64,000 bases of DNA from Bacillales bacterium (GCA_035776675.1 DASTWO010000067.1:207-64206); one strand, 5' to 3'. Positions 43,491 through 64,000 are shown, numbered from the stretch's first letter. The notes: a model not told the origin generated them from the sequence alone. Program-made: numbers and translations.

Positions 43491-44690
43491 ATGCCCAAGT
43501 CGTTTTGGTTATTGATTGTCGGAATGACTGTCAATGTTGCCGGTGCATCGTTGTTGTGGCCGTTAAACACCATTTACATTCATGGAGAATTGGGGAAATC
43601 GCTTGCGCTTGCCGGAGTGGCTCTTATGTTTAACGCCGGTGCGGCGATTGTCGGTAATCTCATCGGCGGGAGTTTGTTCGACAGCATTGGCGGCTATAAG
43701 GCTATCCTCGCCGGGATTTTTTTGTGTACGTTTGCGGCCGGAATGTTGATTTTCTTCCACAGTTGGTGGTTTTATATTATTTTTCTGGTGGTTCTTGGCT
43801 TTGGTTCGGGGATGGTCCGTCCCTCAATGTTTGCATTGGCCGGGTCGGTTTGGCCGGAAGGCGGACGCAAAGCGTTTAACGCGATTTATGTGGCGCAGAA
43901 TCTTGGTGTGGCGGTCGGTGCCGCTGCCGGCGGATGGATCGCTTCCTTTTCTTTTCAAAGTGTATTTACAGTGAATATGGCTATGTATGCGATTTTTCTC
44001 TTGATTGCGTACTTCGGTTTTCGTCGTTTTGACGGTGAAGGTGAATCAGCTATTGCGGTCGGAAGGCCGCAATCGAAATCAGCTGGTATTCGTGATCGCA
44101 CCCGATTTACGGCGTTGATGATACTGAGTGCCGTCTTCTTTCTTTGCTGGATGGCATATGTCCAATGGCAGTCAACGATTGCGGCTTATACTCAGGAAAT
44201 CGGTATTAGTCTGAATCAATATAGCTTGCTCTGGTCAGTGAACGGGGCGTTGATCGTTCTTGGCCAGCCATTGATTGCCATTGTCGTGAAGAAAGTCCGT
44301 TCTCCGAAGTCACAAATGACCGTTGGGATTTGCATTTTCATTGCAGCGATGGCTGTTGCTGCCGGGGCTGAGGGGTTCGTCGGATTCCTTACTGCAATGA
44401 TCATCCTCACTTTTGGCGAAATGCTAGTATGGCCGGCGGTTCCAACCGTCGCTCACGAAATGGCGCCAACCGGCAGGGCAGGTTTCTATCAAGGATTCGT
44501 GAACAGTATGAAAACGGCTGGGAAAATGGCAGGACCGCCGCTCGGCGGCATTATTGCAGATCTGTATGGGATGCCAACGTTGTTTTCATTGTTCATGGTC
44601 GTTTTTGGTTTCGCGATCGTGGCCGCGTTGTTCTATGATCGTCCGTTGAAAAGAAGTCATACCACATCGGAAGCTGCCCGATCATGGTAA
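43491..44690 (+). CDS. MFS transporter
   Basis: ATG at 43491 follows GGGGAGGTGG. About 12 hydrophobic helices. Confidence 0.8.
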   Translation: MPKSFWLLIVGMTVNVAGASLLWPLNTIYIHGELGKSLALAGVALMFNAGAAIVGNLIGGSLFDSIGGYKAILAGIFLCTFAAGMLIFFHSWWFYIIFLVVLGFGSGMVRPSMFALAGSVWPEGGRKAFNAIYVAQNLGVAVGAAAGGWIASFSFQSVFTVNMAMYAIFLLIAYFGFRRFDGEGESAIAVGRPQSKSAGIRDRTRFTALMILSAVFFLCWMAYVQWQSTIAAYTQEIGISLNQYSLLWSVNGALIVLGQPLIAIVVKKVRSPKSQMTVGICIFIAAMAVAAGAEGFVGFLTAMIILTFGEMLVWPAVPTVAHEMAPTGRAGFYQGFVNSMKTAGKMAGPPLGGIIADLYGMPTLFSLFMVVFGFAIVAALFYDRPLKRSHTTSEAARSW

Positions 44691-47630: not shown

Positions 47631-48851
47631 CTATGAAGTTTGCCATTTCTCCAATTGTTCATCGCTCGGCAACAGCAGTGCCAATAGGCCGAGCAGCGGC
47701 AAGAATGAAACAGCTGTCATGGTTGAGGCGATTCCGAACAAGTCGGCAAAACGTCCGATCACGATTGACCCGATGGCGCCGAGGCCAAAACCGAGGCCGA
47801 CAATCAGTCCGGAGGCGGTCCCAATATTGCCGGGTAACAATTCCTGTGCGTAGACGACGGAAACCGAGACATTGGCAAGCAAGATCACACCGGTCAATAC
47901 CAAAAGAGGCAAGGCCAGAACCGGGCCAACGTGCGGCAAAAGGATACTGATTGGCGCGGAGCCTGCTATTGAAAGGAGAATGACGTTTCGTTTCCCGATC
48001 TTATCCGCAATAGGACCCCCAATGAAAGTTCCTAACGCGGCCGCCGCCATAAAAACAAAGATGTATAACTCCGCGTGTTGAATAGTGAAATGGTACTCTT
48101 CGATTGTGAAGAAGGTATAGAAGTTCAGCATGGCGGTCCGATACCATGATCGTGCAAATACGAGAAAAACCAAGAGCCCCATAACATAAATCAACCGGTA
48201 ATTAAGGGAGAACCTGTTGTTGCCCGCATGTTGTTTGTTCGGACGCTTTCTAGATTGGAAAGGCAGTTGTTCAGCGTACCATTTGGCAATATAAAATAAT
48301 AAAATAACGGCCATAGCTGCAACAATCGTGAACCAGAGGGCGCCGTCCTGGCCAAGCGGGACTAATATGAGCGCGGTGATAATCGGGCCAAGAGCCTGTC
48401 CTGTGTTTCCGCCGACCTGGTAGATCGATTGCGCAAAACCGCGGCGGCCGCCTGAGGCCATATAGGCGACACGTGAGCCTTCAGGATGAAAGATGGCGCC
48501 TCCAATTCCGATGAAGGCGACGGAAAGCACAACTAACCAAAATGACGGGGCCAATGCCAAACCGACAATGCCAAATAGTGTGAAACATAGGCCGATAGGC
48601 AATGCAAAAGGCGAAGGCTTGCGATCTGTGAACCAGCCGACGAGAGGTTGAATGACCGAAGAGGTCATGTTCGCCGCAAAGGCGATGAGTCCGAGTTGGG
48701 TGAAAGTGAGCCCGAGTGATTGTTCGAGAATCGGAAACATAGCCGGAATCAGTGCGGAAATTGAATCGTTCAACAGGTGAACGGTGGCGATGATCAACAG
48801 GATCGGATAGATGGTCTTCGATTTGTTGAGTGTCAGAGCTTGTCCTTGCAT
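47631..48851 (-). CDS. MFS transporter
   Basis: 406 aa with 12 hydrophobic helices. Confidence 0.8.
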   Translation of the reverse strand: MQGQALTLNKSKTIYPILLIIATVHLLNDSISALIPAMFPILEQSLGLTFTQLGLIAFAANMTSSVIQPLVGWFTDRKPSPFALPIGLCFTLFGIVGLALAPSFWLVVLSVAFIGIGGAIFHPEGSRVAYMASGGRRGFAQSIYQVGGNTGQALGPIITALILVPLGQDGALWFTIVAAMAVILLFYIAKWYAEQLPFQSRKRPNKQHAGNNRFSLNYRLIYVMGLLVFLVFARSWYRTAMLNFYTFFTIEEYHFTIQHAELYIFVFMAAAALGTFIGGPIADKIGKRNVILLSIAGSAPISILLPHVGPVLALPLLVLTGVILLANVSVSVVYAQELLPGNIGTASGLIVGLGFGLGAIGSIVIGRFADLFGIASTMTAVSFLPLLGLLALLLPSDEQLEKWQTS

Positions 48852-52024: not shown

Positions 52025-52663
52025 ATGTTAGGAAAAGATGTCATTGATAAAACGATTGTTCATGTTGAAGATGATCAAGAGAAAGCTAAGGTAAAGGATC
52101 TTTTGATCAGGAAGGATCGCCCGGAAATGGCTTATCTGACTTTCGATTTGAAAATCCCATCCGGAGAAATCGGTGAAAATGAAGATGGAAGAGGAGCCTT
52201 GGATACCGTTAGGGCTGGGGGAGGGGTGAAACCCGCTACATGGAATATTAATCAAGGGACAGCTCCACCAGAGGTTACCCCGAGCGCAGGTGGCGAAAAA
52301 AGATTCTTTCTCATTCCAAAGGAACAAATTGAGCGTATCTCCTCCAACGCAGTTGTGATGAGTGGAACGGAAGTTCAGGAAGAATCGCGGGAAATTGATT
52401 GTTATTCCTATTCCCTTCTGAAAGATCGGGAAATTGAGACGGAAGACGGCGAAACATTGGGTAAGATAAAGGACATCGTGATTGAGGAAAGAGAGAAGAA
52501 AATAATCGGCTTTAAGCTTTCCGAAGGATTCTGGGAGAAATTGATAGGAGATGGAACGAAATATATGTCTTATGACGGCATTATTGAATGGAAAGATGAT
52601 AAAATTATCGTGAAAGCATCTGTGAAAGATCAACTTGTCGACGAATACGAACAACTGGTTTAA
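52025..52663 (+). CDS. PRC-barrel-domain protein
   Basis: LGKDVIDKTIVHVEDD and LKDREIETEDGETLGKIKDIVIEE are PRC-barrel-like halves. The start is ATG 52025 or TTG 52019, after AAGGAGAG. Confidence 0.65.
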   Translation: MLGKDVIDKTIVHVEDDQEKAKVKDLLIRKDRPEMAYLTFDLKIPSGEIGENEDGRGALDTVRAGGGVKPATWNINQGTAPPEVTPSAGGEKRFFLIPKEQIERISSNAVVMSGTEVQEESREIDCYSYSLLKDREIETEDGETLGKIKDIVIEEREKKIIGFKLSEGFWEKLIGDGTKYMSYDGIIEWKDDKIIVKASVKDQLVDEYEQLV

Positions 52664-52664
52664 G

Positions 52665-52695
52665 AAACCACGGAAAGCCGTCCGTGGTTTTTTTC
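52665..52695. terminator. bidirectional terminator
   Basis: AAACCACGGA (52665-52674) pairs with TCCGTGGTTT (52681-52690), followed by a T-run. Confidence 0.8.
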
Positions 52696-52928
52696 TATGT
52701 TACTTTCACTTTTTTTTCAGTTGTTGTCCATGTTCCCCGTCTTGGACTTTGCACAAGCTCGTTATACACAAGGATGTTCAGATCTCTTTGAATGGTTCTC
52801 TGGGTGATTCCAAACTCTTCAACAAGTTCCATTGTCGTGACCGTTTCTTTTTCACGGATGAACAGATACATGGATTTAATCCTTGTCATCATCCGGTCTG
52901 TTGAAGCTTTCAAAAAATCACTCCTCAA
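52695..52928 (-). CDS. small DeoR-type HTH protein
   Basis: MYLFIREKETVTTMELVEEFGITQRTIQRDLNIL is a DeoR-type N-terminal HTH. The start is uncertain: TTG 52928, TTG 52913 after GAGGAG, or a downstream ATG. Confidence 0.6.
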   Translation of the reverse strand: MRSDFLKASTDRMMTRIKSMYLFIREKETVTTMELVEEFGITQRTIQRDLNILVYNELVQSPRRGTWTTTEKKVKVT

Positions 52929-53123: not shown

Positions 53124-54698
53124 TCACGAAAAATCATGTGACATCCCGACTTCCCAAAGTTTGATACATAAATCGAACAGAAAGAAATCGTCAGGGTTGC
53201 CGAAGGAACGTTTCGTCAGGGTTTCAATTTTGTGGATCCGATAAACAAGAGATTGCCGGTGCAAGTGAAGCGCCCGAGATGTTTTGCTAATATTGCCCTT
53301 ATGTCTTATATATTCTTGCGCGGTTCCCAAGAGGTCAATTCCTTTCTCCCTGTGATAACGATCAAGTTCACCTATCACTTCATGAGTGATTTCCTGAATC
53401 TCCTCATTGGTTGCAAGAATCGAGAGCGCCCGGTACATCGGGATGTCTCCGTAGGCGGTTCTATGACCTGGCCCCTTCTGTTTGGACCCCATTGTCAGAG
53501 CGGTTTGTGCAGATTTATAGCCTTCATGAAAAGTTCCGATGCCGGCCTGATTTTCCCCGATTCCCCAAGAAAGAGAGAAATCTCCGCCATCACCGGTAAA
53601 CCCTTTATCAAGAAAATAAAAAAACGTATGGACCGTGTCCATAATCGCTTCGTCGTTGACCTCGAGAAATACAATAATTTCGTCGTTTCCGTATGTAACC
53701 ATCATTCTTCGGTCCAATGATTGTCCTAAATGAAGAATGCGTTTGGCGGTATTGCGGATTTGCAGTTCCAGCGAAGCTCGGGGCTCCACGGTTTCTGCTC
53801 TTGCAAAGAGACATACATAGGGCACATCAATGTTGAATTGAAGAGATTTTGCCCGCAATCGTGCGCTCTCCCAGGATTGGAATTCTCCACGAGCCAAATT
53901 CCAAACGAAGTCTCCTCGCAACCTGAATTCTGTTTCTTTGACGGCATTATCGCGAAGAAACCAGAGAGCTGCGGCGGTTGCCGCGTGTTCAAGCAGAATA
54001 TTTTCCTGTTCGGCTATTTGTAATGCTTCTTGTACTGGGAATAGAATGGTTCCCTGAATATGGCTGGCAGAGCGGATCGGAATTTGTATGAAATCGGCCG
54101 GTTGCTGAAGAGCCGCATAGCTTTCCCAACTCTGAGCAAGGGTGTCTGAACCATGGCTCATGCCCTGGATGGTTTCGTTTTGATCCAGAATAATGACAGG
54201 TTTCTTCGTCTTTTCTTGAATGAAACGGGCAATGCTGGATAAATCGCCGCCGTGAAGGATGAGGTTCAACAGTTGTTGTTGGGTTTTCTCAGATTGACGG
54301 GCTTCTTTCTGCCTGAGTTCGTTCATTCGCTGCAGGATGGTCTGGGTGATGTCGGCAAAGCGCAGTCCCCACGGAACTTCGATAATAGGGAAGTGATGTT
54401 GTTCCGCCAAATTCAGTACGTTTTCGGGAATGGTGGAAATATGCTGCCCTGTTGCCAGCGCCAATGCAGCCGGTTCAGAGGCAAGAATGTCCTTGACAAA
54501 ATCCTCGAAAAGTTCGGGGTCATGCCCGCATCCGATGCCCGTGCTTAAGACAAGCTCATCTTTGCGAACGAAGTCTTCGACCGGAATTTCGATAACGGAC
54601 ACACTTTCCACCTTGCGGTCCTTTAACGTTTGGTTAGCCGTTTTGACTTTCGATTGTTCCATCATGTCTAAATCGACAATATCCTGTACCGTAAGCAT
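53124..54698 (-). CDS. PucR-family transcriptional regulator
   Basis: ATG at 54698 follows GAGGTGG. C-terminal PucR HTH (ISKTSRALHLHRQSLVYRIHKIETL) and an N-terminal PucR-like sensor domain. Confidence 0.85.
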   Translation of the reverse strand: MLTVQDIVDLDMMEQSKVKTANQTLKDRKVESVSVIEIPVEDFVRKDELVLSTGIGCGHDPELFEDFVKDILASEPAALALATGQHISTIPENVLNLAEQHHFPIIEVPWGLRFADITQTILQRMNELRQKEARQSEKTQQQLLNLILHGGDLSSIARFIQEKTKKPVIILDQNETIQGMSHGSDTLAQSWESYAALQQPADFIQIPIRSASHIQGTILFPVQEALQIAEQENILLEHAATAAALWFLRDNAVKETEFRLRGDFVWNLARGEFQSWESARLRAKSLQFNIDVPYVCLFARAETVEPRASLELQIRNTAKRILHLGQSLDRRMMVTYGNDEIIVFLEVNDEAIMDTVHTFFYFLDKGFTGDGGDFSLSWGIGENQAGIGTFHEGYKSAQTALTMGSKQKGPGHRTAYGDIPMYRALSILATNEEIQEITHEVIGELDRYHREKGIDLLGTAQEYIRHKGNISKTSRALHLHRQSLVYRIHKIETLTKRSFGNPDDFFLFDLCIKLWEVGMSHDFS

Positions 54699-54741
54699 GG
54701 GCATCCACCTCAACTATTAAGTGGAACATAAGATTTGTTCT

Positions 54742-55710
54742 TCATGATTTAGAAGCGTTGACGACATTGTAAAATGCGGTAAGATCGATATTCTTCCCGC
54801 TGATGATTATAGCAGTGTTGTGACCGGATACTGGCAAAATGTTATGAAGAAGGGCTCCGACACCTACAGCAGCCGCTCCTTCTGTGACAAGGCGATGTTC
54901 TTCCATCATAAAGGTCATGCCATCGGCAATCATGGTTTCATCCACAAGAATCGTCTCATCAACATACTTCTTCACCATATCAAATGTATGTCGATTCTCG
55001 AGGCCAATCCCGCCGAGCAGACTGTCTGCCAATGTATCGGATTCCTGCATCTCAATCGGCCGTCCGGCTTTCTGGCTTTCGAACATGACAGGGGAATGTT
55101 GCATCGAAACGCCGATCACTTTCATATCAGGTCGATTTGCCTTCAACGACAGCGCGATTCCGCTTATCAATCCACCGCCCGATAAAGGCACAACGGCCGC
55201 GTCGATGGATGGTTGGTCTTCCAGTAATTCGAGCCCGATTGTGCCCTGGCCAGCAATAATTTCAGGGTCGTCAAACGGCTCAATGATCGTCATTCCATGC
55301 TGTTTCCGCAGTTCTAAACATCGCCTACCCGCTTCGTCCTGGCTGTCTCCGTAAATTTCAAGCTTGCCGCCGAATTTACGAATGGCGTCCGCTTTTGCTT
55401 TCGGAACACGGCGGGAAACACAGATGACCGCTTCAATGCCAATTTGTCTTGCGACATAAGCTACGGCAAGTCCGTGGTTTCCAGTGGAATAGGTCGTCAC
55501 ACCGCGCTTTTGTTCATTCTCCGACAGGCTTAAGATCTTGTTAGCCGCTCCCCGTATTTTGAAAGCGCCGATCTCATGCATGCTTTCCAATTTCAAATGA
55601 ATGTTTCCGCCCATTCGATCAGAGAGTGCCGGGCAATGAAGCAATGGTGTTCTTCCGACCAGCGAGGCGATTCTTTTCTTAGCCTTCCATACGTCCTGAA
55701 TGGCAATCAT
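54742..55710 (-). CDS. PLP-dependent threonine/serine dehydratase-family enzyme, EutB-like
   Basis: 322 aa. PLP-lysine motif GAFKIRGA. STGNHG, PLSGGGL and LADSLLGGIGLENRHTF. I associate the last block with the hydroxyectoine-utilisation dehydratase EutB subfamily, from memory. Confidence 0.75.
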   Translation of the reverse strand: MIAIQDVWKAKKRIASLVGRTPLLHCPALSDRMGGNIHLKLESMHEIGAFKIRGAANKILSLSENEQKRGVTTYSTGNHGLAVAYVARQIGIEAVICVSRRVPKAKADAIRKFGGKLEIYGDSQDEAGRRCLELRKQHGMTIIEPFDDPEIIAGQGTIGLELLEDQPSIDAAVVPLSGGGLISGIALSLKANRPDMKVIGVSMQHSPVMFESQKAGRPIEMQESDTLADSLLGGIGLENRHTFDMVKKYVDETILVDETMIADGMTFMMEEHRLVTEGAAAVGVGALLHNILPVSGHNTAIIISGKNIDLTAFYNVVNASKS

Positions 55711-55931
55711 TTCTATCCATTCCTTTCGTTATTATATCACAAACATAGAATAGTTGGGTTATTAGGTCAATTGTGAAAAATGGATAAAGGAGGCTGTTGA
55801 TTTTCATACAATTTTGTCATTGTTCTTAAAGGGGTCACTTGCGTAAGATGAAAGTAATCAGATAAAGAAATGCTGTTTCACCTTTGAATGCCTATCGTGA
55901 TTCGGACAATGAAGACAGGGGAGGTTACAAA

Positions 55932-57137
55932 ATGATGCTGCCGTTCGATATTACCGAATATACGGAACGACTGGAGAAGGTCAAGAAATCGATGGAAAAG
56001 GAAGGCGTTGATGTGTTGTGTATCACCAACCCTTCGAACATGAACTATTTATCAGGTTACGATGCATGGTCTTTTTATGTTCATCAAATGGTAGTTGTGA
56101 TCGCCGAGGAAAATCAACCTTACTGGATCGGCAGGTTACAGGATGCCAACGGTGCCAAGCTTTCGACGTGGTTGGATGATCATCATATCATTTATTACCC
56201 GGATGATTATGTTCAATCCAAGACGAAGCATCCGATGGATTTCATTTCCGCGATCCTAAGGAGCTGGGGCTATCATTCCCGCCATATCGGCGTTGACATG
56301 GATAATTATTATTTTACAGCGCTTTGCTATGAGAAGTTGAAAGCCGGTCTTCCTGATTCTATGCTTAAGAACACCACGTCATTGGTAAGCGAAGTCCGTA
56401 TGATCAAATCAGCGAAAGAAATCTTTTATATGAAAAACGCTGCCAGAATTGTGGAACACGCCATGAAAGTGGGCATTGAGGCCGTAAAGCCCGGTGTCCG
56501 TGAGAATGATGCCGTTGCTGAAATCTATCATGCGCAGTTAACCGGGACAAATGATTTCGGCGGGGACTATCCGTCGATCGTGCCTCTAATGCCCTCGGGA
56601 ATCAAAACGGCGGCTCCCCATTTGACCTGGACCGATGGGCGCTATCAGAATGATGATCTCGTTATCATGGAACTGGCTGGATGTTATCGGCGGTATCATT
56701 CTCCCCTCGCAAGAACCATAAAGCTGGGGACGCCGAATCAGAGGGAACGACAAATAACGGATGCGGTCCTTGAAGGGATCGACGCTGTTTTAAATACGAT
56801 TAAACCGGGAGTGACATGTGAAGAAGCGGAGGCGGTCTGGCGGAAGACAATCGCCAAACACGGTTTTGCCAAGCATGATCGTCTTGGCTATTCAGTTGGT
56901 TTGAGTTATCCGCCGGATTGGGGTGAGCATACAGCGAGTATTCGTGAAGGAGACAGGACAGTCTTCCAACCGAATATGACTTTCCACTTCATTCCGGGCA
57001 TCTGGCAAGATGATTGCGGAATTGAAATCAGTGAATCACTGGTTATTACAGAGAACGGTTGCGAAACATTGGCTAAATTTCCAAGGGACTTACTATCTGT
57101 GTATACGGGAGGCGGTGATGCTCATGAAAGTCTATAA
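55932..57137 (+). CDS. M24 (creatinase / Xaa-Pro peptidase fold) hydrolase, ectoine hydrolase DoeA/EutD-like
   Basis: ATG at 55932 follows AGGGGAGG. NMNYLSGYDAWSFYVHQ, PHLTW, YHSPLARTI and YPPDWGEHTASIREGD resemble DoeA/EutD as I remember it. Confidence 0.7.
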   Translation: MMLPFDITEYTERLEKVKKSMEKEGVDVLCITNPSNMNYLSGYDAWSFYVHQMVVVIAEENQPYWIGRLQDANGAKLSTWLDDHHIIYYPDDYVQSKTKHPMDFISAILRSWGYHSRHIGVDMDNYYFTALCYEKLKAGLPDSMLKNTTSLVSEVRMIKSAKEIFYMKNAARIVEHAMKVGIEAVKPGVRENDAVAEIYHAQLTGTNDFGGDYPSIVPLMPSGIKTAAPHLTWTDGRYQNDDLVIMELAGCYRRYHSPLARTIKLGTPNQRERQITDAVLEGIDAVLNTIKPGVTCEEAEAVWRKTIAKHGFAKHDRLGYSVGLSYPPDWGEHTASIREGDRTVFQPNMTFHFIPGIWQDDCGIEISESLVITENGCETLAKFPRDLLSVYTGGGDAHESL

Positions 57138-58089
57138 CGAAGAGGAAATTCGTAATCACATCGATTTGACGCAAGAAGCGATAGCGGAAGTAGAAAACGG
57201 GTTCAATCGGCTCCAGGCCGGGGATACAGAAATGCCTCCGATTATGAGGATCGATGTCAGCGATTATAACGGCGAAGTGGATGTGAAATCTGCTTATGTA
57301 CGCGGTGAGGAGATCTTTGCCGTCAAGCTTTCTTCCGGTTTCTTCGATAATTATAAGCTCGGATTGCCGAGTGGAAACGGGCTTATGGTGTTGATAAATT
57401 CGCGGACGGGAGTTCCGGAGGCAGTGCTATTGGATAATGGCTATTTGACGGATGTGAGGACCGCGGCAGCCGGAGCGATTACAGCGAAGTATTTGGCGCC
57501 GGAAAGGGTTCGGACCGCAGGCGTGATCGGAGCCGGGACACAGGCTCGCTTTCAGATGAAGGCATTGAAGCAGTTTCGGGATTTCGAAAGAATTCTCGTT
57601 TACGCCTCTTCGAATCGTAGGATCGACGAATTCGCGGAGGAAATGAAAGAGGCGCTGAAAGTTGAAGTGGAGGCTGTTGACAGCGCCGAAAAGGTTGTCA
57701 GAGAAAGTGATGCCGTCGTTACGACGACACCGGCGAAAGAGCCGGTATTGCGGGCCGAATGGCTGCATCCGGGACTCCACATTACAGCGATGGGGTCGGA
57801 TGCAGAGGAGAAGAATGAGTTGGATCCGCAAGTGTTGGCGAAAGCCGACAGGCTTGTGTGTGATGTGAAATCGCAATGTTTCCGGTTAGGGGAACTCCAC
57901 CATGGGTTAGAACAAGGTGTGATAACCCGTGATAGTGAAATAACCGAGCTTGGCGAGATCACATCCGGCAACGCCAAAGGGCGCGCGGACCCGGAGCAAA
58001 TTACGGTTTGCGACCTAACGGGGACCGGTGTCCAGGATACCGCGATAGCGGGGTATACGCTTCGAAAACTGACAAACGGGGAAGGGTGA
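57118..58089 (+). CDS. ornithine cyclodeaminase / mu-crystallin-family enzyme, EutC-like
   Basis: ATG at 57118 follows GGAGG and overlaps the upstream stop by 20 nt. Rossmann motif GVIGAGTQARFQ. Confidence 0.8.
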   Translation: MLMKVYNEEEIRNHIDLTQEAIAEVENGFNRLQAGDTEMPPIMRIDVSDYNGEVDVKSAYVRGEEIFAVKLSSGFFDNYKLGLPSGNGLMVLINSRTGVPEAVLLDNGYLTDVRTAAAGAITAKYLAPERVRTAGVIGAGTQARFQMKALKQFRDFERILVYASSNRRIDEFAEEMKEALKVEVEAVDSAEKVVRESDAVVTTTPAKEPVLRAEWLHPGLHITAMGSDAEEKNELDPQVLAKADRLVCDVKSQCFRLGELHHGLEQGVITRDSEITELGEITSGNAKGRADPEQITVCDLTGTGVQDTAIAGYTLRKLTNGEG

Positions 58090-58094
58090 TTGAA

Positions 58095-59291
58095 ATGAGT
58101 GAGGCAAGACGTGGAACGCAATCGGTATGGGCCGGAGAAGATGAGTATCTTCTTCAGGGAGCGACACAGGTGCCGGTTGTTCACAGTGTTTCTTTCGGAT
58201 ATAAAGATATTGACGAATGGCATGATGTTGCCTTAGGGAAAAGAGAAGGCCATATTTATGGCCGCAATACGAACCCGACGGTTCAAGTATTCGAGGAGAA
58301 AGTAAGATTGATGGAAGGCGCTGAAGCCGCTACCAGCTTCTCCACCGGAATGGCGGCGATCAGTAATACACTGTTCACGCTTCTTAAGCCCGGTGACAGG
58401 GTTGTTTCCATCCGTGATACGTACGGTGGAACCAACAAGATATTCATTGAGAATCTGCCGAATTTTCAAGTGGATGTTGAATTATGTGTAACGACAAATC
58501 ATGAAGCCATCGAAGAAGAAATTGAAAAAGGCTGCAAAGTCTTATACCTGGAGACGCCGACGAATCCAACGATGAAAATAATGGATCTGGAGCGCTTGAT
58601 TCGAAAAGCGCGTGAAGTTGGCGCTATCACGGTCGTTGATAACACATTTGCGACACCCGTTAATCAAAATCCTCTGGAACTCGGAGCCGATCTGGTTGTA
58701 CACAGTGCGACGAAGTTCCTGGGAGGCCATGCGGATGCGCTTGGCGGGATTGTTTGCGGTTCGAAGGATTTGGTGGAACAAATCTATCATTTCAGGGAAA
58801 TTAATGGTGCCACACTCGATCCAATGTCCGCCTATCTCTTGCTACGGGGCATGAAGACACTTGAGTTAAGAGTGAATCAACAACAGAAAAGTGCGATGGA
58901 AATTGCCCGCTACCTTGAGAAAAATCCGTTGGTAGATGAAGTTTTCTACCCGGGGCTTGAATCACACGTTGGTCATGAAATCGCCAGGAAACAGATGAAA
59001 GGGTTTGGCGGTATGCTGAGCTTCTCATTAAACGACGGCATTGAGGGTGTTCGTAAATTCTTGCCTAGTTTACGATATGCCCATTTGGCGGCTAATCTGG
59101 GAGCGGTGGAAACCATAGCCGCGATTCCGAGAACTGCGAGCCACGTTGAATGTACGGCTGAGGAGCGAAAAGCAATGGGCATTCCGGAAGGATTGATTCG
59201 GTATTCGGTGGGAATTGAGAATACTGAGGACTTGATTGCCGATTTAGAGCAAGCCTTTAAGGTTCTGGAGAAATCTTCTGTAGGTGAGTGA
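58095..59291 (+). CDS. Cys/Met-metabolism PLP-dependent enzyme (cystathionine gamma-synthase / gamma-lyase family)
   Basis: ATG at 58095. ETPTNP, VVDNTFATP and the PLP-lysine motif HSATKFLGGH. Confidence 0.85.
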   Translation: MSEARRGTQSVWAGEDEYLLQGATQVPVVHSVSFGYKDIDEWHDVALGKREGHIYGRNTNPTVQVFEEKVRLMEGAEAATSFSTGMAAISNTLFTLLKPGDRVVSIRDTYGGTNKIFIENLPNFQVDVELCVTTNHEAIEEEIEKGCKVLYLETPTNPTMKIMDLERLIRKAREVGAITVVDNTFATPVNQNPLELGADLVVHSATKFLGGHADALGGIVCGSKDLVEQIYHFREINGATLDPMSAYLLLRGMKTLELRVNQQQKSAMEIARYLEKNPLVDEVFYPGLESHVGHEIARKQMKGFGGMLSFSLNDGIEGVRKFLPSLRYAHLAANLGAVETIAAIPRTASHVECTAEERKAMGIPEGLIRYSVGIENTEDLIADLEQAFKVLEKSSVGE

Positions 59292-59296
59292 TCCGA

Positions 59297-60487
59297 ATGG
59301 ATGATCAACAATTCAAGGTGAAATTAACCGAGTGGCGGCGTCATTTGCACGCCCATCCAGAACGGAGTTTCGAAGAATATGAGACTTCGAAATTCGTAGG
59401 AGAGGTCCTTCGATCCCTTGAGGGAATCAAGGTGGATACAGGAATAGCGGGAACCACCGGAGTGATGGGAACCTTTTCTTCGGGAGAAGGGCCGACTGTC
59501 CTTCTCCGGGCTGATATGGACGCGTTGCCGATCACTGAAGAAGCGGATCACGATTATTGTTCGCAAAATAAAGGTGTAATGCATGCCTGCGGGCACGATG
59601 CCCATACGGCGATTCTCCTTGGTGTCGCGCACTTATTGGAAGAAAGGTTTAAAAACGGAAATCTGCAAGGTACGGTGAAATTATTGTTTCAGCCGGCTGA
59701 AGAGACTCCCGATTCGGAAGGGGTGACCGGTGCGCCGAGAATGATAGACGCAGGCGTTCTGGAAGATGTCGATACCGCTGTAGCCTTGCATATGTGCCCA
59801 TGGAAGCAAGTTGGTGAGGTTCAGGTTAATGACGGATACAGCATGGCCAATGTGGATGTTTTTCATGCGACGCTTTACGGAACTGGAGGTCACGGGGCAT
59901 ACCCGCATCTAGGGACGGATCCCATTTGGATGCTGGGGCCGGTGTTGCAGGCGTTTCATGGCATTGTGCCACGAAGAGTATCTCCGCTTGAACCGGCTGT
60001 TATCAGTGTCGGACGTCTCGAGGCAGGCTCGACATCGAACGTTATTCCCGGTGAAGTCAATCTTGAAGGGACGATGAGAAGTTACAGTCCCGAAACCCGG
60101 GAATTGTTGTCGGATGAGTTGGAAAGTGCTATCGCAGTTGTCAGGCAACTTGGAGGGGAATATAAGCTGGCTATTACACATGGTGAGCCGGCGCTGGACA
60201 ATGATTCACAAGTAAACAGGCGAATTATTGAATCCATTAACGACATTTACCCCGATTTTCAAATTGATCGGGCGCCGTTCGGACTCGGCGGGGAAGATTT
60301 TGCTCATATATCAAAGGTTGTGCCCGCATCAATGTTTTTTCTCGGTTGCGCGTTACCAGACGGGAAACAACGTGACTTGCACACGTCGGAGTTTGACATC
60401 GATGAAAGATGCCTGCCGATTGGGGCTCATATTTTATTGGAAACAGCTATTCGGTGTTTAAGCAATCTTGGAGGTGAACGCCCATGA
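59297..60487 (+). CDS. M20D amidohydrolase (N-acyl-amino-acid deacylase / hippurate-hydrolase type)
   Basis: ATG at 59297 follows AGGTGAG. HAHPE, RADMDALP, HACGHDAH and FQPAEE motifs. Confidence 0.85.
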   Translation: MDDQQFKVKLTEWRRHLHAHPERSFEEYETSKFVGEVLRSLEGIKVDTGIAGTTGVMGTFSSGEGPTVLLRADMDALPITEEADHDYCSQNKGVMHACGHDAHTAILLGVAHLLEERFKNGNLQGTVKLLFQPAEETPDSEGVTGAPRMIDAGVLEDVDTAVALHMCPWKQVGEVQVNDGYSMANVDVFHATLYGTGGHGAYPHLGTDPIWMLGPVLQAFHGIVPRRVSPLEPAVISVGRLEAGSTSNVIPGEVNLEGTMRSYSPETRELLSDELESAIAVVRQLGGEYKLAITHGEPALDNDSQVNRRIIESINDIYPDFQIDRAPFGLGGEDFAHISKVVPASMFFLGCALPDGKQRDLHTSEFDIDERCLPIGAHILLETAIRCLSNLGGERP

Positions 60488-61560
60488 CTCATAAATTGGC
60501 GATGGTCGGTTTTGGAGGAGTCGGACAAGGTTTGGCCGAAATTCTCCTTGAAAAGAAACATTTTTTAAAAGAAAACTTCGATTTTGAGGCGAAGATTGTA
60601 GCAGTTTCGGATGTATTGAAGGGTGCGATTTATCATCCGGAGGGACTTGACATTGAAAAGGTTCTTGAGACGGTCAGGGATACCGGGAAGCTGGACGATT
60701 ACCCTGAAACTTCAGGGTTGATTCGCGGCTGGGACAGCATTCGAACGATTAGGAAGACCAATGCCGACACTGTTGTGGAGGTCACTTATACCGATGTTCA
60801 AACGGGCCAACCGGCAATCGACCATTGTCAAACCGCTTTTGAAAACGGCAAGAATGTTGTGATGACCAACAAAGGTCCCGTCGCTCTAAAATATAAGGAA
60901 CTGTCCGAACTGGCTGAGAAGAACAACGTACAGTGGGGATTTGAAGGAACTGTGATGAGCGGGACTCCAACTTTGCGGATGCCATCGGTTTCTCTCGCTG
61001 GAAATAAAATCAACGAAATACGCGGTATTTTCAATGGAACAACCAATTATATTCTTACGAAAATGGAAGAAGGGCTTGGTTACGATGAAGCCTTAAAGCA
61101 AGCCCAGGAATTCGGTTACGCCGAAGCTGATCCCACAAGTGATGTTGAAGGTTACGATGCCTTATACAAGGTGGTAATTTTGGCGAATGTCGTCATGGGG
61201 AATCCGTTGAGAAAAGAAGAAGTCTCCTGTCAGGGAATCACGCAACTGACGGATGATGACATCAACGAAGCGAAGTCGGAAGGAAAACGGTGGAAACTGA
61301 TCGGGAAAGTTCAACAAGATTCAGATGGGAATGTAACTGGTGCCGTTCGCCCTGAGAAAGTCCCGTTAAGTGATCCGCTTGCGAGTGTAACGGGTGCCTT
61401 GAATGCCATCACGTATGAATGTGATTTGTCAGGTCCTGTGACTGTGGTTGGAGCCGGAGCTGGCATTGCGGAGACCGGTTTTGCGCTATTAATAGATTTA
61501 ATTCATTTCGATAGAAAGTCAGTCGAGCATTCAGCCACAAAGATGGCAAGTCACCGATAA
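60484..61560 (+). CDS. homoserine dehydrogenase-family oxidoreductase (no ACT domain)
   Basis: ATGA overlap with the upstream gene. MVGFGGVGQG Rossmann motif. GYAEADPTSDVEGYDA is the homoserine dehydrogenase signature. Confidence 0.8.
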   Translation: MTHKLAMVGFGGVGQGLAEILLEKKHFLKENFDFEAKIVAVSDVLKGAIYHPEGLDIEKVLETVRDTGKLDDYPETSGLIRGWDSIRTIRKTNADTVVEVTYTDVQTGQPAIDHCQTAFENGKNVVMTNKGPVALKYKELSELAEKNNVQWGFEGTVMSGTPTLRMPSVSLAGNKINEIRGIFNGTTNYILTKMEEGLGYDEALKQAQEFGYAEADPTSDVEGYDALYKVVILANVVMGNPLRKEEVSCQGITQLTDDDINEAKSEGKRWKLIGKVQQDSDGNVTGAVRPEKVPLSDPLASVTGALNAITYECDLSGPVTVVGAGAGIAETGFALLIDLIHFDRKSVEHSATKMASHR

Positions 61561-61654
61561 AAGTTTTACGATTCCGACCGGTATTGAATTTAACCTCTGT
61601 CATTCAATCTGAACAACCCCTGCGGGTTTGTTCCAGGAAAGGTGGTCTAATCAA

Positions 61655-63097
61655 ATGGTGAAAGTCAGTACAACCGGCCAGAAAATGTTTATCGGAGGAA
61701 ATTGGGAGGACCGGGAACAGACAATAGATGTAGTGGATCCCCAAGACAACAGTTTGATTAATACAGTCCCTTCAGCGAGTGCTGACGATATGTATCGGGC
61801 AATCGAAGGAGGAAAAGAAGGCGTTAAACAGGCTGCGAGAATGCCTGTTCATGAAAGGGCCGCTGTTCTGAAAAGGACGGCTGAAATTGTTGAAGAACGA
61901 AAAGAGATTTTCGCGACGATCATCGCAAGGGAAGGCAGTAAGACAATAAATGAAGCTCGCGGGGAGGTGTCCCGTTCCATTCAAACTTTGCGGCTTAGTG
62001 GGGAAGAGGCTTCACGCATTAACGGAGAGACTGTGGCTTTCGATCAAGTGCCGGGTAGTGAGAATCGTGTGGGTTACTTTTATCATTTTCCAGTAGGCCT
62101 GGTCGGCGCTATCACACCGTTTAATGATCCTTTGAACCTCGTTGCCCATAAGGTCGGTCCCGCAATTGCCGGCGGAAATGCCGTTATTCTTAAACCGGCA
62201 ACGGCTACTCCTCTAAGCGCTCTTTACCTTGCAGAAGCTTTCATGGATGCGGGATTGCCTTCCAAAGTATTGTCTGTCATAACCGGGAAAGGAAGCGAAA
62301 TTGGTGATCCGCTTGTTACGCATCCGGATGTCAACATGCTTTCATTCACTGGCGGGCTGGAAACCGGAGAAGCGATTACGAGGAAGGCGGGATTAAAGAG
62401 AATCGGCATGGAGCTCGGTTCCAATTCACCGGTTATAGTCCTTAAGGACGCTGATCTTGAACAGGCGGTTGAGGCAACAGTCAGCGGTGCCTTCTCGGCT
62501 GCCGGGCAAAATTGCCTCGGCGTGCAAAGAGTGTTCATTCAAGAAGACGTATTTGATTACTTTGCCAGGGGCTTTGTTAAACGCGCAAGCGAGTACAAAA
62601 CTGGCAATAAATTGTCTGAAATGACGGATATGGGGCCAATGATTGACGAAAGGGAAGCAAGACGTATGGAAGCCTGGGTAGAGGAGGCTGTTGACGAAGG
62701 AGCTAATGTACTGTGCGGAGGTGTCAGGGACGGAGCCTTCTATACGCCGACAGTGTTAACGAATGTTCCTTACTCATGCAAAGTAGCGCAGGAAGAGGCT
62801 TTCGGTCCAGTTGTTTCGTTATTTCCTTGTAAAGATCTGGAGTCGGCCATTGTTGGCGCCAATCGCGTCGATTACGGTTTGCAAGCAGGAATATTCACAC
62901 GTGACATCGATAAAGTGTTTCAAGCTATCGAAAAGTTGGAGGTCGGTGGAGTCATTATCAATGATAGCAGTGATTATCGAATTGATGCCATGCCTTTCGG
63001 TGGCGTTAAAGGATCCGGAATCGGCAGAGAAGGCGTGAAATTTGCCATCCGGGAAATGACGGAAAAGAAAGTGGTCAGTTTCAAACTGGCAAGATAG
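61655..63097 (+). CDS. NAD(P)-dependent aldehyde dehydrogenase
   Basis: ATG at 61655. VGPAIAGGNAVILKP, ELGSNSP, GQNCLGVQR (catalytic Cys) and EEAFGPV. Confidence 0.9.
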   Translation: MVKVSTTGQKMFIGGNWEDREQTIDVVDPQDNSLINTVPSASADDMYRAIEGGKEGVKQAARMPVHERAAVLKRTAEIVEERKEIFATIIAREGSKTINEARGEVSRSIQTLRLSGEEASRINGETVAFDQVPGSENRVGYFYHFPVGLVGAITPFNDPLNLVAHKVGPAIAGGNAVILKPATATPLSALYLAEAFMDAGLPSKVLSVITGKGSEIGDPLVTHPDVNMLSFTGGLETGEAITRKAGLKRIGMELGSNSPVIVLKDADLEQAVEATVSGAFSAAGQNCLGVQRVFIQEDVFDYFARGFVKRASEYKTGNKLSEMTDMGPMIDEREARRMEAWVEEAVDEGANVLCGGVRDGAFYTPTVLTNVPYSCKVAQEEAFGPVVSLFPCKDLESAIVGANRVDYGLQAGIFTRDIDKVFQAIEKLEVGGVIINDSSDYRIDAMPFGGVKGSGIGREGVKFAIREMTEKKVVSFKLAR

Positions 63098-63120
63098 GGA
63101 AAGGAAATATGACGATAGAA

Positions 63121-63150
63121 GGAGCACCTTTATAGGAGGTGCTCGTTTTC
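63121..63150 (+). terminator. rho-independent terminator of the catabolic operon
   Basis: GAGCACC (63122-63128) pairs with GGTGCTC (63138-63144), followed by GTTTT. Confidence 0.8.
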
Positions 63151-63325: not shown

Positions 63326-64000
63326 ATGGAAGTTCAGGAGCAGAAGGAACGGCTGGATCGCTGGTATTGGGCAATGAAATACGAAGACAAGGAAGATGCC
63401 GATCTTCAGAAGCAAAATATTGATGCCAAAATCGAAGAATTTAGAGATCCTGAAATGAAAAAACTTTACGAATTGCTCGTAATCAGGTATCATCTAATGT
63501 ACAAAGATTTTGAAAAGTCGGTATCAGCTTTTGCGGAAACCGGACCGGTTGAAGATGAAGGCCACTGGTTGAATTACTTCTACTATTTCTTCAGGGGCAT
63601 TTATCATTATGATAGGAAGGAATACCGGGCCGCCATTGACAACTACATGAGAGCGAAACCACTTGCGCTTGAAACCACCATGATTGAACTCGCCGAACTT
63701 TATTATAAACTCGCTTCAGCCCATCAACGCACATATGAAACGGCCCTCTCTATTGAATACACCAAGAAGGCACTGAAAATTTTCAAGGAAAGATCGCATT
63801 ATAGAAGAGTGGCCAGTTGCCAATCTTTATTAGGCATTAACTTTAAAGACATTGATCAGTATAATGAAGCAGAACGATCCTATCATGACGCTTTGATATA
63901 TGCTGCCAAAGCGGACAATGACCTTTTGAAGATGCGAATCCTTCATAATTTCGGTGTTTTATATACGGACCAGAATGACCCTAAGACTGCCATTAGTTAT
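63326..64000 (+). CDS. Rap-family response-regulator aspartate phosphatase (TPR protein), 5' part only
   Basis: Hand-translated from the ATG at 63326 (after GAGGTGAAAGG): MEVQEQKERLDRWYWAMKYED...NYFYYFFRGIYHYDRKEYRAAIDNYMRA...AELYYKLASAH...ALKIFKE.., a Rap-like TPR pattern. Open to the window end. Confidence 0.7.
   Translation, partial: MEVQEQKERLDRWYWAMKYEDKEDADLQKQNIDAKIEEFRDPEMKKLYELLVIRYHLMYKDFEKSVSAFAETGPVEDEGHWLNYFYYFFRGIYHYDRKEYRAAIDNYMRAKPLALETTMIELAELYYKLASAHQRTYETALSIEYTKKALKIFKERSHYRRVASCQSLLGINFKDIDQYNEAERSYHDALIYAAKADNDLLKMRILHNFGVLYTDQNDPKTAISY

Follow-up and report, generated by a model that had tools for sequence, protein, structure and literature searches.

A soil Bacillales copy of a putative ectoine and hydroxyectoine degradation cluster with a proposed homoserine route to aspartate

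Which compound is broken down, and to what product, by a gene cluster that joins ectoine-type entry enzymes to a gamma-family PLP enzyme and a homoserine dehydrogenase? The question is raised by a stretch of 64,000 nucleotides from a Bacillales bacterium, referred to here as the window, in which eight genes had been placed by an earlier note, together with their tight junctions and a terminator. All eight open reading frames are present, two on the minus strand and six forming an operon on the plus strand; the ORFs and the family searches agree with that layout, and independent gene calls on a public contig give the same operon junctions. Families were assigned by Pfam and NCBIfam profile searches of all eight proteins, with E-values from 1e-28 to 1e-214. 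The cluster type is already in print as putative (AEM 2026) and is therefore not new; the present locus is a soil Bacillales copy of it, with the following features.

53124..54698 (ORF 53124-54713), minus strand: PucR-family regulator, with PucR N-domain, GGDEF_2-like domain and HTH_30
54742..55710, minus strand: EutB-like fold-type II PLP dehydratase (NCBIfam)
55711..55931: intergenic control region from which eutB-pucR and the six-gene operon diverge
55780..55819, plus strand: candidate operator, core TTTCATACAATTTT with upstream box ATGGATAAA
55932..57137, plus strand: M24 hydrolase of creatinase/prolidase fold, DoeA/EutD-like (NCBIfam, PDB match)
57118..58089, plus strand: OCD/mu-crystallin family enzyme, EutC-like (NCBIfam)
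58095..59291, plus strand: Cys/Met-metabolism gamma-family fold type I PLP enzyme, PRK08249 subfamily (NF006097)
59297..60487, plus strand: M20D amidohydrolase, AbgB/hippuricase type (TIGR01891)
60484..61560, plus strand: monofunctional homoserine dehydrogenase (HSDH), no C-terminal ACT domain (NF004912)
61655..63097, plus strand: NAD(P)-dependent aldehyde dehydrogenase (ALDH; Pfam Aldedh)
63122..63150, plus strand: intrinsic terminator closing the operon, stem-loop followed by GTTTTCAT

The M24 gene is preceded by a GGAGG ribosome-binding site, and its end is overlapped by 20 nt by the start of the OCD gene. Gaps of 5 nt precede both the PLP and the M20D genes, and the M20D/HSDH junction is an ATGA overlap. 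The ALDH gene has AAAGGTGG as its ribosome-binding site, the TTG at 61628 being only a mechanical ORF start. The terminator consists of a 10-bp stem (5 GC pairs) at 63122-63144 with a 3-nt loop and the tail GTTTTCAT, and is followed by a Rap-like TPR ORF that starts at 63326.

On balance, we favor the view that the cluster degrades ectoine and hydroxyectoine to aspartate, with the last steps running through homoserine and not through the usual transaminase. The M24 DoeA-like hydrolase would open the tetrahydropyrimidine ring to give N-alpha-acetyl-L-2,4-diaminobutyrate (N-alpha-acetyl-DABA) or its 3-hydroxy form, from which the M20D amidohydrolase would take off the acetyl group in the stead of DoeB/EutE. 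If the hydroxy form is the substrate, the beta-hydroxyl would next be eliminated by the EutB-like dehydratase, and the EutC-like OCD enzyme would reduce the 2-imine so formed to DABA, in the manner of the BhcB/BhcD pair. The gamma-family PLP enzyme would remove the gamma-amino group of DABA and bring in water, yielding L-homoserine and ammonium with no transaminase, after which the ACT-less homoserine dehydrogenase would form aspartate semialdehyde and the aldehyde dehydrogenase would oxidize this to aspartate. This lower route, from DABA via homoserine and aspartate semialdehyde to aspartate, is put forward only tentatively. The comparison set comprised 78 related genome loci, in 50 of which the M24 gene has an orthologous PLP gene as its neighbor.

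The M24 protein scores best on the DoeA family (TIGR02993), at 486 bits against a cut-off of 613, and it matches DoeA of Halomonas elongata (PDB 6TWK; E = 1.5e-117) with 47% identity across 385 residues. The proposed role is that of an ectoine/hydroxyectoine ring hydrolase. The M20D protein, which contains an HACGHD motif, passes TIGR01891 (376; cut-off 153.75) and scores 227.5 on the DoeB2 model for M20-family acetyl-DABA deacetylases (NF038260; cut-off 550). Its gene is retained in 4 of the 5 class III aminotransferase loci described below as type II, which are otherwise canonical-looking, and the protein is probably the N-alpha-acetyl-DABA deacetylase that replaces DoeB/EutE. Four loci (L018, L019, L057 and L076) consist of the M24 and PLP genes only, with a deacetylase absent nearby; they hint at N-gamma-acetyl-DABA as a possible alternative substrate of the PLP enzyme.

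The EutB-like protein passes one EutB model by 3 bits (NF005680, 416.2; cut-off 413) but falls short of the other (TIGR02991, 369.6; cut-off 413.35), and also matches the BhcB and 3-hydroxyaspartate ammonia-lyase models at 240-250 bits. We propose 3-hydroxy-2,4-diaminobutyrate as its substrate. The OCD protein passes the "cyclodeaminase" model NF006141 (472; cut-off 408), scores 400 on EutC (TIGR02992; cut-off 471.65), and also matches BhcD iminosuccinate reductase (200 bits) and archaeal alanine dehydrogenase (236 bits); it is a candidate NAD(P)H imine reductase that would convert 2-imino-4-aminobutyrate to DABA, completing the loss of the hydroxyl. Among the PucR loci, EutB and OCD genes are both present in 21, both absent from 22 and discordant in one, these being raw counts that ignore phylogeny. 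The cluster is modular, with EutB and EutC gained or lost as a pair. Trusted TIGRFAM cut-offs had been set in advance as a test of subfamily, and with DoeA and EutC below them and EutB below one of its two models, strict membership is therefore not established; the DoeA, EutC and DoeB2 scores, all below curated cut-offs, count against our reading.

The unusual part of the cluster lies further down. The PLP enzyme scores 710.5 on NF006097 (cut-off 600), with methionine gamma-lyase as the second-best model at 390, and its top PDB matches are methionine gamma-lyases at ~331 bits. Its translation contains YGRNTNPT, DTYGGT (without the MGL cysteine), VDNTFATP, HSATKF with the PLP lysine and IRYSVG with the carboxylate arginine, so that every catalytic motif by which the gamma-family handles an alpha-amino acid substrate is retained; the orthologs in the 50 loci share 63-73% identity with it. 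From these features we propose that it is a homoserine-forming L-2,4-diaminobutyrate gamma-lyase. We know of no gamma-family enzyme that uses DABA, and water addition at C-gamma has, to our knowledge, so far been shown for canavanine gamma-lyase only. The HSDH passes NF004912 (466.5; cut-off 373) and aligns with the ACT-containing model NF004976 over positions 63-329 of 430 only. We propose that it works from homoserine toward aspartate semialdehyde, against which counts its GxGxxG motif, as opposed to the GxGxxN of the oxidation-only class. The ALDH (Pfam Aldedh, 1.8e-158) passes none of the NCBIfam equivalogs, the best being lactaldehyde dehydrogenase at 523 (cut-off 650), and its proposed function is that of a non-phosphorylating aspartate-semialdehyde dehydrogenase, as in DoeC/Ssd.

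Comparative counts, given raw with phylogeny ignored, bear on this assignment. The PLP gene and HSDH are both present in 43 loci and both missing from 26 (discordant, 10), and each is anticorrelated with a class III aminotransferase, which accompanies the PLP gene in two loci (L028 and L047) as against 48 with the PLP gene only and 15 with the aminotransferase only. In five type II loci, from five genera, the order is M24-OCD-(M20)-ALDH-aminotransferase or a rearrangement of these genes; the class III aminotransferase stands in place of the PLP enzyme and HSDH, no remnant of either gene was found in these five, and the adjoining orthologous ALDH is kept (65-67% identical to that of the window). 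Genes for aspartate ammonia-lyase adjoin the operon in L004, L032, L038 and L048, and point to aspartate as the end product. Bacillus thermotolerans carries both operon types (L010 and L052), and therefore the two routes may serve different substrates and not be interchangeable. The non-canonical lower pathway of the earlier note, leading through aspartate semialdehyde or homoserine, agrees with these comparative data.

Two other lower routes from ectoines have to be weighed. In one, the gamma-family protein is a DABA transaminase that gives aspartate semialdehyde directly, which the ALDH takes to aspartate while HSDH diverts part to homoserine and threonine. The published label of the PLP gene in the Bacillales cluster is indeed "atf" (PMC13188858), transaminases occur among fold type I PLP enzymes, and the protein has weak Pfam matches to Aminotran_1_2 and Aminotran_5. 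However, it reaches 710 bits on a model of the cystathionine-gamma-synthase family, and its gamma-family motifs are intact; we know of no omega-transaminase in the gamma-family. This route also leaves the joint loss of HSDH and the PLP gene at class III aminotransferase loci unexplained, and gives one intermediate two competing fates inside a single operon, and we consider it unlikely. The other reverses the order: an unlinked transaminase, such as EctB, forms aspartate semialdehyde, HSDH reduces it to homoserine, and the PLP enzyme acts as a homoserine gamma-lyase (deaminase) that releases 2-oxobutyrate and ammonium, with ALDH leading to aspartate in parallel. Lyases of the family most commonly yield 2-oxobutyrate by gamma-elimination, the methionine gamma-lyase matches agree with it, HSDH is reversible and passes a biosynthetic equivalog model, and 2-oxobutyrate was among the end products envisaged earlier. 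Yet the key step would depend on an unlinked enzyme, carbon would be split over two branches, the anticorrelation with class III aminotransferases is given no reason, and the aspartase genes beside some loci argue for aspartate; this order is improbable.

That ectoines are the substrate, whichever lower route is followed, is quite likely. Several Bacillales orthologous operons, from several genera, adjoin EhuABCD genes that score above the ectoine-specific NCBIfam equivalog cut-offs, and in the 81% relative (L082) EhuB, C, D and A, 4 of 4 above these cut-offs, directly follow the ALDH gene. Transporters of the Ehu, BCCT, TRAP or ProP-like kind lie beside 17 of the 50 orthologous loci, and the genomic context supports ectoines; the other 33 loci have no linked transporter, which, as in the window, counts against this reading. 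The search for an adjacent transporter thus succeeded in the relatives but not in the window, where tblastn over the whole 64 kb found no EhuB/C/D, BCCT, TRAP or ProP-like MFS homolog and ORFs of at least 180 aa include only three generic MFS_1 transporters and one EamA; uptake would therefore rely on a transporter encoded elsewhere. The same tblastn search found no class III aminotransferase, and Pfam scans of all window ORFs of at least 180 aa no AstE/AspA-type deacetylase, Asp/Glu-racemase-type EutA, MocR or AsnC regulator, so the canonical parts listed earlier as missing (EutA, the DoeB/EutE deacetylase, the transaminase, EnuR/AsnC and a transporter) are indeed absent. That the true substrate is merely related to ectoine (N-gamma-acetyl-DABA, a homoectoine-like solute or another cyclic amidine or N-acylated amino acid, such as an N-acetylated diamino acid) has in its favor the subthreshold M24, OCD and M20 scores, the lack of a linked transporter in the window and the placing of Firmicutes DoeA homologs (30-45% identity) on a separate branch with a different genetic neighborhood (Schwibbert et al. 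2011; PMC3187862), but is made improbable by the EhuABCD sets and by full-length identity to a DoeA characterized biochemically and structurally.

The regulator likely starts at the ATG at 54698, since GAGGTGG lies ahead of it and the resulting 524 aa match the 95% relative (L080). Matches to PF07905 (6.7e-28), PF17853 and PF13556 bear out the PucR type, and the gene adjoins the operon in 39 of the 50 loci with the PLP gene; the protein is probably a pathway-specific activator. On the minus strand, eutB has a promoter-like site (55770-55742), and aligned upstream regions give the operon a candidate -35 of TTGTTC (55820-55825) and -10 of TAAGAT (55844-55849). The operator core TTTCATACAATTTT (55802-55815) has an upstream box, ATGGATAAA (55780-55788), similar to its reverse complement. 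At up to 3 mismatches, the conserved 14-mer TTTCATACAATTTG is found in 38 of the 44 upstream regions, compared with 13 for the best word after shuffling; 79 sites were found in 1.53 Mb of loci, 25 of them within 400 nt upstream of an M24 gene against ~1 expected, and the single window site with at most 1 mismatch is at the candidate operator. The PucR-type protein would probably activate the operon from this site, which directly precedes a weak -35.

The closest known system is the putative ectoine cluster "pucR-eutBCD-atf / abgB-thrA-adh (/ eutD-mfs)" of Bacillus salipaludis and others (PMC13188858, April 2026), which leaves the restriction almost only to Proteobacteria out of date, although the ectoine type, PucR regulator and non-canonical lower pathway of the earlier interpretation stand. 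Clusters of this type in Gram-positives are putative only (PMC13188858). PucR, EutB, EutD (M24), EutC (OCD), "atf", abgB (M20D), thrA (HSDH) and adh (ALDH) are shared and come in the same order, and EutE and EnuR are absent from both. Transporter type differs from species to species there; the window lacks the second eutD-MFS pair and a linked transporter. The paper colors abgB, thrA and adh "function unknown" and has the PLP gene as a transaminase, where we read a lyase.

The proteobacterial references are eutABCDE-asnC-ssd-atf with enuR and uehABC/ehuABCD (Ruegeria pomeroyi, Sinorhizobium meliloti) and doeABXCD (H. elongata). They share with the window the DoeA/EutD-type M24 entry enzyme, EutB- and EutC-type proteins and, as proposed here, a last step to aspartate by ALDH, and with its related loci Ehu-, TRAP- or BCCT-type uptake. 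In the window, however, the probable deacetylase is M20D and not an AstE/AspA-type EutE, the regulator is PucR-type and not MocR (EnuR) plus AsnC, the class III transaminase (DoeD/Atf) and EutA are missing, and a gamma-family PLP enzyme and homoserine dehydrogenase are added. The compact doeBDAC operon of Methylotuvimicrobium alcaliphilum, whose DoeB is 22% identical to that of Halomonas, turns over the cell's own ectoine (PMC7192451); like the window it has neither a linked transporter nor an EnuR/AsnC regulator, but it keeps the DoeD transaminase and lacks the PLP lyase, HSDH, EutB and EutC. The present cluster may also recycle the cell's own ectoine.

The EutB and EutC reactions are putative even in Proteobacteria (PMC8739950). 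In the beta-hydroxyaspartate cycle, BhcB, a PLP dehydratase of fold-type II, and BhcD, an imine reductase of the OCD family, likewise act as a pair to remove an amino-acid beta-hydroxyl, from 3-hydroxyaspartate as opposed to the proposed 3-hydroxy-DABA; the window proteins' 240 and 200 bits on these models are far below the 550 and 500 set as equivalog cut-offs. The proposed lower route takes as its precedent canavanine degradation in Pseudomonas canavaninivorans and Rhizobiales, reconstituted with purified enzymes, in which a gamma-lyase yields homoserine, and an NAD-dependent homoserine dehydrogenase and an aldehyde dehydrogenase lead to aspartate and then aspartase (PMC9533460). There hydroxyguanidine leaves canavanine, whereas here ammonia would leave DABA, and the likeness is one of logic, the lyases (CangL) being compared by reaction. 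Both systems combine a Cys/Met-family PLP gamma-lyase, as we read it here, with an oxidative homoserine dehydrogenase and an ALDH in the same module, and the aspartase of the canavanine pathway has its gene in some loci related to the window.

The eight open reading frames (ORFs) that the earlier note had read from the sequence as an ectoine-like catabolic cluster are all found in the window at the places given there. They form a minus-strand pair and a divergent plus-strand operon of six genes, laid out as follows.

53124-54698/54713, minus strand: PucR-family regulator, 524-529 aa, start fixed by a ribosome-binding site
54742-55710, minus strand: EutB-like PLP dehydratase, 322 aa
221 bp: divergent region between eutB and the six-gene plus-strand operon
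55932-57137, plus strand: M24 hydrolase (DoeA/EutD-like), operon gene 1, start fixed by a ribosome-binding site
57118-58089, plus strand: OCD-family enzyme (EutC-like), 20-nt overlap with the M24 gene
58095-59291, plus strand: Cys/Met-family PLP enzyme, 5-nt gap after the OCD gene
59297-60487, plus strand: M20D amidohydrolase, 5-nt gap after the PLP gene
60484-61560, plus strand: homoserine dehydrogenase (HSDH), ATGA overlap with the M20D gene
61655-63097, plus strand: aldehyde dehydrogenase (ALDH), 94-nt gap after the HSDH gene, start fixed by a ribosome-binding site
63122-63150, plus strand: terminator at the operon end, 10-bp hairpin with a T-rich tail

The starts of the M24, ALDH and PucR genes are the same in independent gene calls on public contigs. 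Directly past the terminator begins a Rap-like TPR ORF that is unrelated to the operon (63326-64000, continuing beyond the window edge) and looks like an insertion. At 17198-18584 of a 95 % relative (L080) this ORF, there 360 aa long, and a 44-aa ORF behind it look like a Rap/Phr cassette; a 76 % relative (L081) lacks both and has a K+ channel gene directly after the ALDH gene. At the other end, a 77-aa ORF with a DeoR-type HTH (52695-52928, minus strand) lies directly downstream of pucR, in a position kept in both relatives, and adjoins a strong hairpin at 52662-52693.

The closest M24 proteins come from metagenome-assembled genomes (MAGs) named 'Bacillales bacterium', at 95, 81 and 76 % identity. 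A search of sequencing runs found the region in soil and gill metagenomes only and in no RNA sequencing run, and all that is known of the organism comes from soil metagenomes and MAGs; an exact-sequence look-up of the M24 protein returned a sole match, a 6.5 kb Logan contig with no sequence beyond the window. The remainder of the window is ordinary Bacillaceae chromosome (men operon, pckA, metK, leuS). Within it, a penicillin-amidase family gene (564-3023) stands beside a complete menaquinone operon in the region 564-10733, with menA on the minus strand and menF, D, H, B and E on the plus strand, an ordinary housekeeping context. A camelysin (M73) and sortase cluster at 17576-22816 encloses four ORFs without a Pfam match (17576-18283, 18664-19731, 19758-20321 and 21405-22109), which are possible candidates for sortase substrates or fibre proteins of the TasA kind. 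Between 26416 and 32995, two paralogous regulators, both about 508 aa long, on the minus strand and ending in a GerE/LuxR HTH (26416-27939 and 31466-32995), stand on either side of the genes for a 615-aa AMP-binding enzyme and a metallo-beta-lactamase-fold hydrolase. Finally, 33592-36638 encodes DUF6230 and DUF6114 proteins together with a 578-aa protein that has only a weak apolipoprotein-like (coiled-coil) match.

The subfamily assignments of the earlier note fared unevenly against profile models. The M24 protein scores 486 bits with TIGR02993 (DoeA), under the equivalog cut-off of 613, and the OCD protein 400.2 with TIGR02992 (EutC), under 471.65. DoeA is nonetheless the best family for the M24 protein, which is 47 % identical over 385 residues (E = 1.5e-117) to the crystallised DoeA of H. 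elongata (PDB 6TWK), and the OCD protein passes the NF006141 'cyclodeaminase' model (472 against 408). For the dehydratase the assignment holds by 3 bits with NF005680 EutB (416.2 against 413) but not with TIGR02991 (369.6 against 413.35). The EutB-like and OCD proteins also match the BhcB and BhcD models, respectively. The PLP enzyme passes NF006097, an unnamed cystathionine-gamma-synthase-family model, at 710 against 600 bits, the next model reaching only 390; it matches Pfam PF01053 at 1.6e-132, and its nearest solved relatives are methionine gamma-lyases. The M20D protein passes TIGR01891 and matches the M20-type DoeB2 model at 227 against 550 bits; a literature search on 'DoeB2' and 'DoeA2' found nothing. 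The HSDH passes NF004912 (466 against 373) and is without an ACT domain; its cofactor motif is GxGxxG, as opposed to the GxGxxN of the NAD-only, oxidation-only class, and counts neither way. The ALDH is placed by Pfam (1.8e-158) but passes no equivalog, the best being lactaldehyde dehydrogenase (523 against 650), and no DoeC-specific model is among the NCBIfam matches listed.

Several canonical components, namely EutA, an AstE-type EutE, DoeD, EnuR/AsnC and an ectoine-type transporter, are absent from all 64 kb, as the earlier note had said. The window ORFs include no EutE/DoeB deacetylase of the succinylglutamate-desuccinylase/aspartoacylase fold, and the operon has the M20D amidohydrolase in its place. 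Searching the 64 kb by tblastn with queries from related loci gave no match to a DoeD/Atf class III aminotransferase. EutA, EnuR (MocR) and AsnC were not found in the window, where the regulator is of the PucR type, nor was a linked ectoine transporter of the Ehu, Ueh/Tea TRAP or BCCT kind. The cluster holds neither a second eutD nor an MFS or other transporter, and the M24 gene is the only one in the window. Two MFS genes elsewhere (43452-44690 and 47631-48851) do not qualify as the transporter that the cluster lacks: they have no homology to the operon-linked transporters of other genomes, and leuS and unrelated genes lie between them and the operon.

It is the context of the related operons that points to the substrate. 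Full EhuB/C/D/A sets adjoin some orthologous operons and pass ectoine/hydroxyectoine equivalog cut-offs; the representatives tested gave 387 against 345 for EhuA, 295 against 191 for EhuB and 197.2 against 196.95 for EhuC. In the 81 % relative (L082), four Ehu genes, all above the cut-offs, follow directly after the ALDH gene. Ehu genes also stand beside the operon in L002, L007, L025 and L037, BCCT transporters in L005, L010, L034 and L039, and a TRAP transporter in L012, while ProP-like MFS transporters adjoin some further loci; 33 of the 50 loci with the PLP gene resemble the window in having no recognised transporter within 9 kb. An aspartate ammonia-lyase gene adjoins the operon in four loci, which fits aspartate as the end product. 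Because of this transporter and lyase context, and the subfamily cut-offs notwithstanding, we regard ectoines as the substrate with good probability. The Gram-positive Sinobaca is reported, in papers that cite the work, to consume ectoine. Besides scavenging, the operon may in equal measure recycle ectoine that the cell itself has made, by analogy with Methylotuvimicrobium (PMC7192451).

The related loci were compared by taking one genome per species, calling ORFs in the resulting 78 loci, matching these to the eight window proteins and clustering the rest. Across the loci, mostly from Bacillaceae and related families with a few Clostridia, the M24 family is 54-63 % identical; an orthologous PLP gene occurs in 50 (63-73 % identity), and the M20D, HSDH and ALDH proteins, whose genes come after the first three operon genes in the window, have orthologues at 46-71 %. 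PucR beside eutB and an eutD-eutC-'atf' operon is found in the window and in at least 20 loci of other genera. The loci show the following four recurrent architectures, type I in two forms.

Architectures of the related loci
Type I (as in the window): PucR, EutB, M24-OCD-PLP-M20-HSDH-ALDH; Neobacillus, Ureibacillus, Thalassobacillus, Planococcus, Halobacillus, Scopulibacillus, Ammoniphilus and others
Type Ib: type I without EutB and OCD; several genera
Type II: M24-OCD-(M20)-ALDH, then a class III aminotransferase, without the PLP gene and HSDH; five genera (L032, L048, L052, L058 and L066, the last with the same genes in a different order)
Type III: GntR-regulated, with D-amino-acid transaminase, racemase and RidA; Lentibacillus, Virgibacillus, Oceanobacillus
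Type IV: GntR-regulated, with TRAP, aldehyde:ferredoxin oxidoreductase and an SHMT-like protein; Clostridia

The third architecture (L006, L017, L022, L026, L027, L035, L044, L055 and L063) combines M24 with a GhrB-like 2-hydroxyacid dehydrogenase, GntR, class III aminotransferase, ALDH, RidA, M20 and EutB, with a D-amino-acid transaminase in most of the nine loci and an alanine-racemase-like protein in five. This gene set has no OCD gene, which suggests that after EutB the pathway proceeds by hydrolysis and transamination of the product instead of its reduction. In the anaerobes (L040, L060, L068, L073 and L077, from Clostridia, Tissierellia and Syntrophomonadaceae), GntR, M24, TRAP and M20 are followed by the aldehyde:ferredoxin oxidoreductase and SHMT-like PLP protein, which replace ALDH, PLP lyase and HSDH; this version may be an oxygen-independent lower pathway.

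EutB and OCD come and go together. In the PucR-type loci both are present in 21 and neither in 22, with one discordant (raw counts, kinship ignored), which we take to mean that the two make up an optional module. In the diaminobutyrate (DABA) skeleton, the beta-carbon is the one that bears the hydroxyl of 5-hydroxyectoine, and 3-hydroxy-DABA would be turned into DABA by the threonine-dehydratase-type EutB together with an OCD-family imine reductase. In Ruegeria, hydroxy-DABA quickly becomes DABA, and EutABC is needed for hydroxyectoine use only (PMC8739950). That the OCD protein might instead be a DABA cyclodeaminase is unlikely, since the presence of its gene follows that of EutB and not that of the core genes.

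The core genes show a different pattern, one of replacement. The PLP gene and HSDH are both present in 43 loci and both absent from 26, with 10 discordant, so that HSDH accompanies 43 of the 50 PLP genes; in the window, the lyase, HSDH and ALDH genes all lie in one operon. The class III aminotransferase is anticorrelated with the PLP gene and HSDH, two loci having both the aminotransferase and the PLP gene, 48 the PLP gene only and 15 the aminotransferase only (all raw counts that ignore kinship). The five type II loci contain no remnant of a PLP gene or HSDH, and their ALDH is 65-67 % identical to that of the window. Exceptions are L028 and L047, with both routes, L054, with HSDH but without the PLP gene, and four loci that hold only M24 and the PLP gene. 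Bacillus thermotolerans SGZ-8 carries two versions, one of type I with PLP lyase, HSDH and BCCT (L010) and one of type II with the class III aminotransferase (L052); where a genome has two, they may be specialised for different substrates and not interchangeable. Siminovitchia fordii likewise has two cluster versions in one genome (L031 and L058).

Judged by its gene content, type II would in effect be the canonical pathway of hydrolase, deacetylase, transaminase and semialdehyde dehydrogenase, in which the part of the deacetylase would fall to M20D. This likeness supports both that M20D substitutes for EutE/DoeB and that the PLP enzyme and HSDH jointly do the job of the transaminase, which would be the conversion of DABA to aspartate semialdehyde. 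The replacement pattern with respect to the class III aminotransferase is also the one line of support, an indirect one, for homoserine as the proposed lyase product, which would form by adding water to the vinylglycine ketimine. We infer all mechanistic steps of this scheme.

In translation, the PLP enzyme has SATK, which we take to hold the PLP lysine, the presumed DNTF aspartate and C-terminal arginine, and what appears to be an intact Tyr-x-Arg phosphate/carboxylate clamp; the YGGT tyrosine also seems to be kept, without the cysteine specific to methionine gamma-lyases. With its catalytic motifs all kept, the protein is, as far as sequence can tell, fit to act on an alpha-amino acid as a gamma-family enzyme, and is no class III transaminase.

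Regulation was approached through the upstream regions. Scanned by itself for repeats and inverted repeats, the intergenic region of the window gave no clear site, and the motif came only from cross-genome comparison, in which the word TTTCATACAATTTG, with up to three mismatches, occurs in 38 of 44 upstream regions, against 13 for the best word in shuffled sequences. The aligned sites share an upstream box, TGTATAAA or TTGACTA, which is a partial mirror of the core; the candidate operator core itself, TTCATACA; and a TATAAT-like -10 about 33 nt downstream. This architecture puts the site immediately before a weak -35, the position expected of an activator site. The 1.53 Mb of locus sequence contains 79 sites, of which 25 fall in the 400 nt upstream of M24 genes, against an expected count of about one; others lie before the PLP gene where that gene opens the operon, or between pucR and eutB. 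The site at 55802-55815 is the only good match in the window, a window-wide search for a second, for example before the MFS genes, giving chance-level matches only. From co-occurrence, we infer that the candidate operator belongs to the PucR-type protein.

Taken together, our tentative proposal, which we hold to be somewhat short of an even chance, is that the PRK08249-type PLP protein is a new, homoserine-forming L-2,4-diaminobutyrate gamma-lyase, and that with a dedicated catabolic HSDH it provides Bacillota with a transaminase-independent route from ectoine-derived DABA to aspartate, under a PucR-type activator acting at the TTTCATACAATTTG operator. N-gamma-acetyl-DABA might be an alternative substrate of this protein.

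Soils and brines contain plenty of ectoines, which are osmolytes and also nutrients rich in nitrogen; to our knowledge, Proteobacteria and methanotrophs are the only groups in which ectoine breakdown has been proven. The present cluster type was listed in April 2026 as a putative Gram-positive ectoine cluster, with the PLP gene labelled 'atf' and abgB, thrA and adh (the M20D, HSDH and ALDH genes) left unexplained (PMC13188858); the window is thus a further member of a known, unvalidated kind. What is added here is the module structure, the argument for an M20D deacetylase, the hypothesis, with precedent, of a gamma-lyase and HSDH in place of the transaminase, and the candidate operator. The window shows the full Gram-positive version in a soil lineage of Bacillales, and the published gene list becomes an assayable scheme, in which M20D would act as deacetylase, EutB/EutC would provide an optional de-hydroxylation and gamma-lyase, HSDH and ALDH would replace the transaminase. 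If the lyase step is true, it represents a new PLP reaction, corrects an 'atf' annotation that is now spreading, and is relevant to the engineering of Bacillaceae ectoine producers, whose yield drops through breakdown. The candidate operator offers a handle for locating the unlinked transporter and further regulon members.

A literature search returned no paper in which a gamma-family enzyme is linked with DABA and homoserine in the breakdown of ectoine, and the precedent comes from canavanine. In that pathway, which was rebuilt from its purified enzymes, the gamma-lyase is a PLP protein of the Cys/Met family that removes the gamma substituent and hydrates the vinylglycine ketimine to homoserine; an NAD-dependent homoserine dehydrogenase, an aldehyde dehydrogenase and aspartase then carry homoserine to fumarate (PMC9533460). 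In gene content, the PLP-HSDH-ALDH trio of the window is the same module. By analogy with the canavanine pathway, the PLP enzyme of the window would convert DABA and water to homoserine and NH4+.
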